DNA of 23,036 bases from Candidatus Hadarchaeales archaeon (GCA_038851755.1 JAWCKR010000020.1:1-23036); one strand, 5' to 3'. Shown: positions 13,460 through 16,151, numbered from the stretch's first letter. Notes: generated from the letters alone by a model not told the origin. Numbers and translations: made by a program.

Positions 13460-13738
13460 ATGAGGCTCAGGTGGTGGATGGTGGGGCTGGTGGTCTGCCT
13501 CTTCATGGCGGGAGTCCTCTCCCTCTTCGCCTCCTCCTCTCCCGATGGCCTGGAGAGGGTGGCGGAGGATCACGGCTTCGCGGAAAAGGCGAAGGAGTTT
13601 CTTTCCTCTCCCTTCCCGGATTACTCCGTTCCGGCTTTGGGAGGGGCCCTCTCCACTTCCCTGGCGGGACTCCTGGGTGTCGTCCTGATCCTCCTCCTCA
13701 CCTTTTTCTGGGCCAAGGCCCTCAGGAAGAAGAAATGA
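13460..13738 (+). CDS. PDGLE-domain Ni/Co transport component (NikN-like)
   Basis: MRLRWWMVGL...ASSSPDGLERVAE...PFPDY, two TM helices; GGTGA RBS before ATG 13460 (3' part of the 12851..13738 ORF). Confidence 0.9.
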   Translation: MRLRWWMVGLVVCLFMAGVLSLFASSSPDGLERVAEDHGFAEKAKEFLSSPFPDYSVPALGGALSTSLAGLLGVVLILLLTFFWAKALRKKK

Positions 13739-14490
13739 AGCACCACTTCCTGGACCAGTACAGCGATCGCGCGAGTCCCCTCCACTCCCTAGACCCCAGG
13801 GTCAAGATCCTGACCTTTCTCTCCTTCGTGGTGGTGGTAGTCCTCACCCCCCTGACCCCCCCCTCCCGCTTCCTCTTTTACGCCCTCCTCCTCTTCTCCC
13901 TCGTCCTCCTCTCCAGAGTCCCCCCCGGCTTCCTCCTGAAGAGATCCGCGGTGGTCCTCCCCTTCGTGGGCCTGGTGGCGGTGGGCCTGCCCTTCCTGGG
14001 CGGCAGCGGTGGCTCCTACAACCTGGGACCTTTCCACGTGACCCACTCCGCCCTCCTCATCTTCGCCAACGTTCTCCTCAAGTCCTGGTTCTCCGTGATG
14101 GTGATGGGTCTTCTCGTGTCCACCACCCCCTTCACCCGCCTCCTGCGGGGCTTCCAGTCCCTCGGTCTTCCAGCCCTCTTCACCACCATCCTCTCCTTCA
14201 TGTACCGGTACCTCTACCTCCTCACGGACGAGTTTGAGAGGATGACCAGGGCCAGGGACTCGAGGGCCTGGAGGATGGGCAGGCTGGAGAGGATGAGGGT
14301 CACCGGGAACATGGTGGGCGCGGCCTTCCTGAGGAGCTACGAGAGGGGTGAGCGGGTGTACCTGGCCATGCGGGCGAGGGGCTTCGACGGGGGGATCAGG
14401 GTGATGCGCGAGCCGAGGATGGGGGGGCCGGACTTCCTCTTCCTCTCCCTCTTCTTCCCCCTCCTCCTCCTTCCTGCGGTGATGGTATGA
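13735..14490 (+). CDS. cbiQ: ECF transporter T component NikQ/CbiQ
   Basis: SPLHSLDPRVK, TT.F..L, FMYRY...L.DE..RM..A..SR, FLRSYERGERVY.AM.ARG; ATGA overlap with the upstream gene. Confidence 0.94.
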   Translation: MKHHFLDQYSDRASPLHSLDPRVKILTFLSFVVVVVLTPLTPPSRFLFYALLLFSLVLLSRVPPGFLLKRSAVVLPFVGLVAVGLPFLGGSGGSYNLGPFHVTHSALLIFANVLLKSWFSVMVMGLLVSTTPFTRLLRGFQSLGLPALFTTILSFMYRYLYLLTDEFERMTRARDSRAWRMGRLERMRVTGNMVGAAFLRSYERGERVYLAMRARGFDGGIRVMREPRMGGPDFLFLSLFFPLLLLPAVMV

Positions 14491-15194
14491 AGGCGGTGGA
14501 GATAAGGAACCTGCGTTACACCTACCCCGACGGAACCAGGGCCCTGAGGGGTGTGAACCTGGAGGTGGAGGAAGGAGAAAGCGTCTTCCTGATGGGTCCC
14601 AACGGATCGGGCAAGTCCACCCTGCTCCTCCACCTCAACGGGCTCCTTCTCCCCCAGAGCGGGGAGGTGAAGATTTTCGGGCTGGACCCCAGGAACGGAG
14701 TGGGGGAGATAAGGAGGAGGGTGGGATTGGTCTTCCAGGACCCAGATGACCAGCTCTTCATGCCGACCGTCTTTGAGGACGTGGCCTTCGGCCCTCTGCA
14801 CCTGGGACTGGGAGAGAGGGAGGTCAGGAGGAGGGTGAAGAAGGCGCTGGAGGAGGTGGGGATGAGGGGGTTCGAAAGGAGGAGCCCCCAGCACCTCAGC
14901 TACGGGGAGAGAAAGAGGGTGGCCATAGCCACCGTTCTCTCCATGGACCCGGAACTTCTCGCCCTCGACGAGCCCACGCTGGGCCTGGACCCCTGGATGA
15001 GGAGAAAGCTGCTCTCCCTCCTCCGCAGGCTGAGGAGGGGGAGGACCCTTCTGATGGCGGGGCACGACGGGGAGCTGATGGAGCTGTGCGACCGTGCGTA
15101 CCTGCTTAGGGGGGGCAGGGTGGAGAAGGAAATGGATCCCTGCAGGTGGAGGGAGGAAATAGAAATAGGCGGGGGGAAAAGGGAGTATCGGTAG
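14487..15194 (+). CDS. cbiO: ECF transporter ATPase NikO/CbiO
   Basis: GPNGSGKST, VFQDPDDQLF, LSYGERKR, LDEPT; ATGA overlap with cbiQ. Confidence 0.94.
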   Translation: MKAVEIRNLRYTYPDGTRALRGVNLEVEEGESVFLMGPNGSGKSTLLLHLNGLLLPQSGEVKIFGLDPRNGVGEIRRRVGLVFQDPDDQLFMPTVFEDVAFGPLHLGLGEREVRRRVKKALEEVGMRGFERRSPQHLSYGERKRVAIATVLSMDPELLALDEPTLGLDPWMRRKLLSLLRRLRRGRTLLMAGHDGELMELCDRAYLLRGGRVEKEMDPCRWREEIEIGGGKREYR

Positions 15195-15285
15195 CCCCGT
15201 GGTGTAGATCCGCAAGGAGCACAACGGTCAAGCATGGCGGCCTTTGGAGCCGCTGACCCCGGTTCGAATCCGGGCGGGGCTACCA
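15193..15285 (+). tRNA. tRNA-Gln(UUG) with 17-nt intron (15208-15224) at position 15/16
   Basis: Acceptor stem AGCCCCG/CGGGGCT+ACCA, anticodon arm GCGGC-CTTTGGA-GCCGC, T arm CCCGG-TTCGAAT-CCGGG. Removing 15208-15224 restores the D arm GTGTAG|CGGTCAAGCAT. Confidence 0.93.
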
Positions 15286-15323
15286 GTTAGGTTTTTGGGA
15301 GGAGGAGGTGGAGAATAGGTGGT

Positions 15324-15418
15324 AGCCCCGTGGGGTAGACCCTGTGGCGGGGCCCAACGGTCAATCCTGCGAGGCTCTGGACCTCGCGACCCCGGTTCGA
15401 ATCCGGGCGGGGCTACCA
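15324..15418 (+). tRNA. tRNA-Gln(CUG) with 19-nt intron (15339-15357) at position 15/16
   Basis: Same acceptor and T arms, anticodon arm CGAGG-CTCTGGA-CCTCG, encoded CCA. Removing 15339-15357 restores GGGTAG|CGGTCAATCCT. Confidence 0.93.
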
Positions 15419-15434: not shown

Positions 15435-16151
15435 ATGGAGGAATGGAGGTCCCTGGGAAGGGAGCTGGAGGAGAGGCTGAGGCCAGCCACTTACCCCCTT
15501 GCCGTGGCTTTCCTGAAGGGTGGTGAAGTGCCTGAGGGCGTCAGGAAACCGGAGGAGAAGCTCTCCTTCTGCCAGCTCCTCACCCTCTCTAGGACACACG
15601 GCTGGACCATGGGGCTGGGACCGGAGGAGAGCGGCTGTCCGGCCTTCAGCCTCGTGCTGGGTTGGCCAGCGGAGAGGGAGGTGATGCTGGAGTTCTTCCA
15701 GGCCGCTGGCTACGTGAGGGAAAGGGGGGCGGCGGAGGGCCTTTTGGAGGAGATGGAGGGGCTCAGACCTGAGGGAGTAGAGAGGGTGATCGTCTCTCCC
15801 CTCACCCGCACCAAGGTGGTCCCCGATGTGGTGGTGGTTTACGGCAACTCCGCCCAGATGATGAGGCTGATCCAGGGCGCGGTGTGCGAGCAGGGGAGGA
15901 GGATGGAGGTGAGGCTGGCCGGTTTGATGGGTTCCTGCGGGAGCGTGCTGAGGTCCTACAGGCAGGGGAAGTACGACCTGGCCATACCCGGAACGGGGGA
16001 CAGGGTCTTCGCGGCCACCCAGGAGAACGAAATAGTCTTCACCCTCCCTGCCCCCAAGCTTCGTTCACTGCTGGAGGGAATGAAGGAGCAGAGGCTGGTG
16101 AAGTATCCCCTCCCTCCCAGGCTCTTCCCCCCCTCCTTCCCAGGTGGTTAG
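15435..16151 (+). CDS. DUF169 family protein
   Basis: LR..TYPLAV, FCQ....R..G, C....LG, PDVVVVYGNSAQMMRL, G.GDR.FA...E motifs; RBS GAGGTGA upstream. Confidence 0.82.
   Translation: MEEWRSLGRELEERLRPATYPLAVAFLKGGEVPEGVRKPEEKLSFCQLLTLSRTHGWTMGLGPEESGCPAFSLVLGWPAEREVMLEFFQAAGYVRERGAAEGLLEEMEGLRPEGVERVIVSPLTRTKVVPDVVVVYGNSAQMMRLIQGAVCEQGRRMEVRLAGLMGSCGSVLRSYRQGKYDLAIPGTGDRVFAATQENEIVFTLPAPKLRSLLEGMKEQRLVKYPLPPRLFPPSFPGG

Follow-up and report, generated by a model that had tools for sequence, protein, structure and literature searches.

Two glutamine transfer RNA (tRNA) genes that lie in tandem on a stretch of 23,036 nucleotides (nt) from an uncultured hot-spring archaeon of the Candidatus Hadarchaeales (GCA_038851755.1 JAWCKR010000020.1:1-23036; the whole stretch is called the window below) are each interrupted between tRNA positions 15 and 16, in the D-loop, by a short insert that carries a relaxed bulge-helix-bulge (BHB) motif. 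Judging from the geometry of this motif and its conservation in relatives, both inserts are very probably spliced introns. For the process as a whole, we consider it likely that the two introns are cut by a lone alpha4-type splicing endonuclease, EndA, and that the exons are joined by the ligase RtcB. No further tRNA-Gln-like gene was detected in this genome (G000) by ARAGORN -i, a genome-wide search or ortholog alignment. The pair in the window thus represents the sole tRNA-Gln genes of the genome, and both must therefore be functional. The genes, their exons and predicted introns, and the parts of the motif as read from the sequence are listed below, with coordinates counted in the window and with ^ marking a predicted cut.

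15193-15285, + strand: tRNA-Gln(UUG), here tRNA1; 93 nt, CCA encoded
15193-15207, + strand: tRNA1 exon 1, positions 1-15; 100% identical to bases 1-15 of an intronless ortholog
15208-15224, + strand: tRNA1 predicted HBh' intron, 17 nt, site 15/16; BHB candidates, gap against the ortholog, minimum-energy fold
15225-15285, + strand: tRNA1 exon 2, positions 16-76; encoded CCA at 15283-15285, ortholog alignment
15202-15205 with 15219-15222, + strand: tRNA1 H helix, GTGT with GCAC
15206-15208, + strand: tRNA1 5' bulge, AG^A
15209-15218, + strand: tRNA1 intron hairpin, TCC(GCAA)GGA
15223-15225, + strand: tRNA1 3' bulge, AA^C
15324-15418, + strand: tRNA-Gln(CUG), here tRNA2; 95 nt, CCA encoded
15324-15338, + strand: tRNA2 exon 1, positions 1-15; gene limits, in-silico splicing
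15339-15357, + strand: tRNA2 predicted HBh' intron, 19 nt, site 15/16; BHB candidates, ortholog exon 2 match from 15358, near-optimal motif fold
15358-15418, + strand: tRNA2 exon 2, positions 16-76; encoded CCA at 15416-15418, ortholog alignment
15333-15336 with 15352-15355, + strand: tRNA2 H helix, GGGT with GCCC
15337-15339, + strand: tRNA2 5' bulge, AG^A
15340-15351, + strand: tRNA2 intron hairpin, CCC(TGTGGC)GGG
15356-15358, + strand: tRNA2 3' bulge, AA^C

Splicing motif, junction and conservation of the tRNA-Gln introns

A sequence-only reading of the window had taken both genes for tRNA-Gln genes interrupted at 15/16, each with a 4-base-pair (bp) helix, 3-nt bulges and an intron hairpin in a relaxed motif lacking the outer helix. 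It had further proposed that the exon change from GTGT to GGGT is compensated by GCAC to GCCC in the intron, that removal of 17 or 19 nt yields normal tRNA-Gln D-loops, and that standard annotation may miss both genes. These proposals were borne out by the in-silico splicing, the BHB candidates and the homologs described in this section, and by the behavior of the tRNA finders. ARAGORN with default settings reported neither gene, and Rfam returned none at its gathering score, with partial tRNA matches of 25.6 and 23.6 bits against a cut-off of 29. ARAGORN -i called tRNA1 a tRNA-Pro(tgg) and gave tRNA2 a wrong intron.

In both genes, a 4-bp helix stands between two 3-nt bulges on opposite strands, the arrangement that defines a BHB motif. 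The strict form, hBHBh', is absent from both, as the inner helix h' has 3 bp here and the outer helix h has 0. An exon-exon outer helix cannot form because G9 faces G17, and without it the motif belongs to the relaxed HBh' subtype rather than to the strict form. The geometry is that of a canonical anticodon-loop intron, with exon 1 and the intron's 3' end supplying the strands of the 4-bp helix. For the tRNA1 precursor, the fold of lowest energy contains the motif. Folding z-scores were not significant, either for the whole genes (-1.70 and -1.18) or for the local motifs, so folding energy was set aside as evidence and comparison was used instead.

Deletion of 15208-15224 and 15339-15357 in silico left two 76-nt sequences; ARAGORN folded them with ordinary D-loops and called them tRNA-Gln(ttg) and tRNA-Gln(ctg). 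The program is permissive in this respect; arbitrary deletions of 10-40 nt gave a 74-78-nt tRNA-Gln in 108 of 2077 cases for tRNA1 and in 129 of 2139 for tRNA2. Since many arbitrary deletions pass, acceptance by ARAGORN says little about the junction by itself and was dropped as proof of it. BHB-like candidates, defined by a 4-bp helix, 3-nt bulges and at least one flanking helix, were instead scanned on gene-sized stretches, an earlier genome-wide scan having been noisy for tRNA2 (13 solutions, some across both genes). For tRNA1, only one of the 16 candidates yielded any junction-spanning ARAGORN call, and this candidate is 15208-15224. For tRNA2, 6 of 21 yielded a call, and only 15339-15357 leaves a 76-nt tRNA. 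The intronless ortholog L009:1486-1561 provides an independent view of the same junction: its bases 1-15 equal 15193-15207 (100%), its bases 16-74 align to 15225-15283 (88%) and to 15358-15416 (81%), and the 17 and 19 intervening nt of the window have no counterpart in it. BHB geometry and the intronless ortholog together fix the predicted junction between positions 15 and 16.

To compare these inserts with those of relatives, tRNA-Gln genes were gathered from 41 genomes of the same order by a rule that used only exon 1 and the first downstream NGG(T/C)CA and was thus blind to the 3' helix strand of the intron. Among the 62 tRNA-Gln 5' parts collected (61 unique, one intronless gene being counted twice), an insert at 15/16 is present in 41 and missing from 21 (20 unique). 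The intronless relatives read GTAG^NGG(T/C)CA, exactly as predicted for the spliced junction. Among the inserts there are 36 distinct sequences of 15-31 nt. All 41 have the 4-bp helix intact in register, while shifting the register from -3 to +2 gave 0, 0, 0, 0 and 2 of 41. The two H strands are GGGT/GCCC in 28 genes, GTGT/GCAC in 11, GGGT/GCCT in one and GTGT/GCAT in one, with no mismatched combination, so the exon and intron strands change together across the homologs as they do between the two genes of the window. The choice between GTGT and GGGT does not simply follow the isoacceptor, as the CUG gene of L011 has GTGT/GCAC and the UUG gene of L010 has GGGT/GCCC. At the 5' bulge, AG^A occurs in 37 homologs and AG^G in four; at the 3' bulge, AA^T occurs in 20, AA^C in 14, AT^C in six and AA^A in one. 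The inner helix ranges from 2 to 9 bp with many pair types, and its mean of 4.69 compares with 0.71 in shuffled sequences. A hairpin left free to vary, next to a helix and bulge geometry kept in every homolog, is the signature of selection for a splicing motif.

Two other fates of the inserts have to be weighed against excision at 15/16. Excision at an adjacent junction, such as 14/15 or 16/17, would leave the mature D-loop off by one base; the tolerance of ARAGORN for many nearby deletions (108/2077 and 129/2139) would allow it, but if both bulges are cut behind their second base, as the rule demands, a single solution results, and this solution matches the intronless orthologs (GTAG^CGGTCAA). 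The cut at 15/16 also preserves G15, which can pair with C48, and we regard a shifted junction as very improbable. Even harder to credit is that the inserts are retained as an enlarged D-loop or that the genes are pseudogenes. Some D-arm insertions in Asgard tRNAs do lack the canonical motif and may not be introns (bioRxiv 10.64898/2026.10.13.758758), but in the present case the genome has no other tRNA-Gln genes to fall back on, the insert sequesters a D-stem strand in a way that is incompatible with a folded tRNA, and the homologs have held the helix and bulge geometry around a variable hairpin.

On a wider scale, a pattern built from the motif matched 39 of 66 genomes of the phylum, in four of six families, and a reversed-pattern control matched 0 of 66. 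As this pattern fixes both helix strands, it gauges the distribution of the motif and not its pairing.

Additional features of tRNA-Gln genes were apparent in the order. In L010 (1259-1375 and 1503-1604) and L011 (1504-1605 and 2093-2194), UUG and CUG genes form pairs with identical or nearly identical 15/16 introns and 5' halves, unlike the pair in the window, whose introns differ. The matching introns of the tandem copies in L010 and L011 suggest gene conversion or recent duplication. Second or third inserts occur in tRNA-Gln genes of L010, L013, L017, L021, L027, L029, L036, L040 and L041, at sites that include the vicinity of 20/21 in the D-loop, the anticodon stem and, in L041, the T-arm; some of the genes with such extra inserts have no 15/16 intron.

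The splicing endonuclease and ligase

The EndA gene of the genome (G000:C4 ~40045-40581) sits between aEF-2 and TrpRS-like open reading frames (ORFs) and consists of an open frame of 184 amino acids (aa) for a protein of 178 aa in which PF02778 and PF01974 are both present. An RtcB ligase gene was found at G000:C1:98130-99437 with 593.8 bits. Over residues 32-178, EndA is colinear with the alpha4 enzyme of M. jannaschii (1a79), with two 1-residue gaps. Its catalytic residues Y114, H124 and K155 do not vary among 50 sequences, and its acidic loop VDDEGD (162-167) aligns with VDADGD of 1a79, the L10 loop, which serves tetramer contacts (Hirata 2019 review). One gene of about 180 aa with both EndA domains, and with the catalytic Tyr, His and Lys and the acidic L10 loop in the same subunit, corresponds to the alpha4 type.

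The sequence-only reading had gone on to infer an (alpha-beta)2 or epsilon2 endonuclease in this lineage, which was not supported and appears wrong in kind. An epsilon2 enzyme comprises three units of about 395 aa in all and the ARMAN-2 loop, and the EndA found here is a single 178-aa protein in which the five residues that ARMAN-2 has inserted between Tyr and His are missing; homologs elsewhere were searched over lengths of 97-312 aa. As to an (alpha-beta)2 enzyme, no separate beta gene was detected, and EndA lacks the crenarchaea-specific L1 loop, which carries a conserved Lys in the N-terminal domain of alpha; a 9-residue gap stands opposite this loop of A. pernix, and the Asgard alpha subunit does have the loop. 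Between the catalytic Tyr and His, the segment YGRGEKPGEAH has the length of its M. jannaschii counterpart, two residues more than in the alpha subunits of A. pernix, M. kandleri and the Asgard genome and five fewer than in ARMAN-2. The RGxKPG loop within it is common to EndA of G000 and to the single-copy EndAs of four DPANN genomes with the same 15/16 intron; R116, G117, P120 and G121 are conserved at 98-100%, and position 119 is Lys in just 61 of 113 sequences. The Asgard genome with a 15/16 intron has two EndA genes, one of them with a crenarchaeal-type loop.

Taken together, these features point to the following course of events. The tandem UUG and CUG genes would be transcribed each probably from its own A/T-box promoter, and in each primary transcript a short intron would separate G15 from N16. 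Instead of pairing with 22-25, nucleotides 10-13 on the 5' side of the D-stem would pair with the four intron nucleotides before the final two, forming the central helix of the BHB motif. The 5' bulge would then consist of A14-G15 and the first intron base, the 3' bulge of the last two intron bases and N16, and the inner helix h' of the 3-bp intron hairpin, and with no outer helix the result would be HBh'. EndA would cleave after the second base of either bulge and RtcB would ligate G15 to N16, after which the released D-stem strand could return to its pairing with 22-25, completing a normal 76-nt tRNA. The RGxKPG loop, which leads from the catalytic Tyr to the His, may lend EndA its tolerance of the missing outer helix. 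That the lone 178-aa EndA cuts as a homotetramer without a partner appears reasonably probable from its sequence, and less firmly so than that the inserts are introns.

Several observations weigh against this course of events. The minimum-energy fold of tRNA2 lacks the motif, and a fold constrained to contain it lies 3.5 kcal/mol higher at 37 C and 0.44 higher at 70 C; being near but above the minimum, the motif fold is permitted by thermodynamics, which proves nothing further. EndA has no insertion of any kind relative to the narrow-specificity enzyme of M. jannaschii, and enzymes that lack a specificity loop (A. fulgidus alpha'2, M. kandleri) cleave D-loop introns with HBh' or BHB motifs inefficiently, if at all, in vitro (Kaneta 2018, PMC5829648; Hirata 2011, PMC3241643). 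The genome is 93% complete, and a helper factor or a beta subunit of strongly diverged sequence may have escaped detection. Among the sequencing runs listed as containing the stretch, none is on record as RNA. Of four runs compared with the genes, the raw RNA run and one RNA contig set gave 0 reads, and two contig sets that are probably DNA carry only the unspliced gene, with no joint at the predicted sites, a result that decides nothing about splicing.

The strongest competing explanation accepts the introns and assigns their cutting to a heteromeric (alpha-beta)2-type enzyme, whose beta subunit would be too divergent to recognize or would be encoded in the 7% of the genome missing from the assembly. 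It would accord with the incompleteness of the genome and with reports that non-canonical introns are efficiently cut only by (alpha-beta)2 and epsilon2 enzymes with specific loops, the types to which relaxed motifs at non-canonical sites have been tied (Kaneta 2018, PMC5829648). In addition, the closest solved structure to EndA is the beta-alpha fusion of M. kandleri, 5x89. That same match, however, reaches the beta unit at 70 bits, so a beta subunit like that of M. kandleri would be seen, and as a positive control the Pfam search picked up the second EndA subunit of the Asgard genome G067 at 65.7 bits; a typical beta would thus have been detected. Among the 12312 six-frame ORFs of G000, the EndA query found only itself and no paralog, with the next best E-value at 0.14. 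Across the order, 39 of the 41 genomes have a single strong EndA match, the other two being one genome (82% complete) without a match and one (88% complete) with a weak match at E=0.51, and the Pfam search of all 41 gave no second match better than E=0.027. Catalytic alpha subunits of heterotetramers generally lose the acidic L10-like loop (seen in our alignment for A. pernix only), whereas EndA of G000 keeps this loop together with the catalytic triad, as a self-sufficient alpha4 subunit would. On this balance a hidden beta subunit is improbable, and cutting by the lone alpha4-type EndA with joining by RtcB is the reading we carry forward.

A gene of the tRNA-guanine transglycosylase (TGT) family is also present, at G000:C10:16763-17725. 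The archaeal enzyme of this family replaces G15. As the intron lies directly 3' of this target, the order of splicing and G15 modification could be constrained.

Relation to known systems and occurrence outside the phylum

An alpha4-type EndA alongside many disrupted tRNA genes has been described for Hadesarchaea (Kaneta 2018, PMC5829648). That study covers the tRNAs and EndA of Hadesarchaea archaeon YNP_N21, which is of the same lineage, and assigns this EndA the authors' L3 loop, an extra loop with a Lys that lies in the C-terminal domain, where it separates the catalytic Tyr from the His. The passages of the article covered here name no tRNA, position or motif, whereas here the tRNA-Gln 15/16 HBh' intron is defined and dated across 66 genomes, with the D-stem strand involved in its motif. 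The tRNA-Glu of M. kandleri, reported in the same article, likewise has a relaxed HBh' motif in the D-loop, in a euryarchaeal-type lineage whose EndA is without the crenarchaeal loop, and its mature form was seen by RNA-seq. It differs from the present case in its site, 20b/21 rather than 15/16, and in its enzyme, an (alpha-beta)2 type that cuts poorly in vitro where G000 has a single alpha-type gene (Kaneta 2018, PMC5829648). Near the site of the M. kandleri intron, G000 has an intron of its own at 21/22 of tRNA-Asp. Thermoproteales catalogues presumably contain D-loop sites near 15/16.

In A. pernix, tRNA-Thr has a D-loop intron as well, which EndA cuts alone, without a guide RNA or modification; its motif is a canonical BHB and its enzyme has a 9-residue loop with K44, a loop that EndA of G000 lacks (Hirata 2011, PMC3241643). 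Short BHB-type introns at many positions, several per gene, are likewise known from tRNAs of Thermoproteales, DPANN and Asgard archaea, and D-arm introns are often overlooked by annotators (PMC4090602; PMC8450103; bioRxiv 10.64898/2026.10.13.758758). The sites given in the text of Yoshihisa 2014 (PMC4090602) are 20/21, 22/23, 25/26, 29/30, 30/31, 45/46, 53/54, 56/57, 59/60 'etc.' and 3/4, and 15/16 is not named among them. A literature search, with older position catalogues and the 2018 supplement outside its range, found no article that names an intron at 15/16 of tRNA-Gln, and Kaneta 2018 was the only one found on tRNA introns of Hadarchaeota. The phenomenon at the level of the lineage and the kind of intron are thus already in print, and the portions of this literature covered do not describe the tRNA-Gln 15/16 intron, how widely it occurs or how its strands covary.

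In order to follow the motif beyond Hadarchaeota, the pattern was scanned across all species genomes, which gave at least 125 loci that were mostly chance matches in bacteria, with a T-arm motif downstream in 18 of 128. Among the matches listed, the same architecture occurs in genomes labelled Woesearchaeota, Nanoarchaeota, Promethearchaeota and 'uncultured archaeon'. L086, L105, L129, L145, L172 and L173 have a tRNA-Gln insert at 15/16 with a GTGT...GCA(C/T) helix and AG^A and AA^N bulges. Removal of the insert in silico gave a tRNA-Gln for five of seven such non-Hadarchaeota loci. A further intron in the anticodon loop is present in one locus, and another locus contains several introns. In a sample of the DPANN phylum, 2 of 401 genomes matched the pattern, both of them the seed genomes, and the absences may reflect under-detection because the pattern fixes the D-arm sequence. 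Outside Hadarchaeota, in DPANN and Asgard archaea, the predicted 15/16 intron is sporadic, or under-detected by the fixed pattern.

These observations bear on the long-standing rule by which a relaxed motif located elsewhere than in the anticodon loop requires an endonuclease that is heteromeric or built of three units and has special loops. Hadarchaeales may possess a functionally new class of endonuclease, a single-subunit, alpha4-type enzyme that is colinear with the M. jannaschii enzyme and would routinely cut HBh' motifs at several sites, among them 15/16, 21/22 and 34/35, perhaps with the RGxKPG loop as determinant; we put this forward tentatively, at somewhat less than an even chance. 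As the sole candidate enzyme is a small alpha4-like protein, an in-vitro assay could confirm or overturn the rule, and the 36 natural intron variants with one fixed geometry offer a clean, essential and deeply conserved substrate on which to test how such an enzyme would deal with relaxed motifs. If such a class exists, tRNA-Gln would offer, in its D-stem strand G(U/G)GU-A14-G15, a landing site that can be used repeatedly, and the intron position shared by Hadarchaeota, DPANN and Asgard archaea would be accounted for. For annotation, common tRNA finders overlook or mislabel the tRNA-Gln genes of G000 and those in the majority of the Hadarchaeales genomes searched, and automatic annotation would show a lineage without tRNA-Gln or with a spurious tRNA-Pro.

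The locus and other introns of the genome

Both genes have an A1-U72 pair in the acceptor stem and a standard T-arm. Two further features of the locus were noted by inspection.

15155-15169, + strand: A/T-rich box GGAAATAGAAATAGG, ~31 nt upstream of tRNA1
15290-15299, + strand: spacer GGTTTTTGGG with a T-run at 15292-15296, in the same place in the same-genus loci L004-L007

The box GGAAATAGAAATAGG is likely an archaeal TATA-type promoter of tRNA1, to judge by its sequence and position, and its core GAAATAGAAATA also occurs upstream of tRNA-Gln in L004 and L007, the two same-genus loci with upstream sequence. The spacer GGTTTTTGGG could possibly serve as a terminator of tRNA1, as an A/T box ~31 nt upstream of tRNA2, or as both. 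Upstream of tRNA1, at window positions 13471-15194, lie genes for a CbiQ-type transporter component and an ABC ATPase, the stop codon of the ATPase abutting tRNA1, and downstream of tRNA2, at 15435-16151, lies a gene for a DUF169 protein; neither side carries tRNA-processing genes.

Elsewhere in the genome, two tRNA genes with at least two inserts each were found at G000:C7:20380-20540 (- strand) and G000:C2:6740-6925 (+ strand). One is possibly a tRNA-Lys(CUU) with an HBh'-like insert at ~9/10 and the other possibly a tRNA-Asn(GTT); a two-intron scan of both returned implausible tRNA identities. Finally, single non-canonical introns of 28 nt with an HBh' motif were observed in a tRNA-Asp(GTC) gene, at ~21/22, and in a gene that ARAGORN -i called Met(cat) and that is better read as tRNA-Glu(CUC), where the intron falls inside the anticodon, at 34/35 (Asp and Glu, in this order, at G000:C4:54640-54770, + strand, and G000:C6:6865-6990, - strand). 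These two introns share their length, an 8-bp inner helix and a common GGCGAGGAGT core, a resemblance that suggests the copying of one intron into another tRNA at another position.

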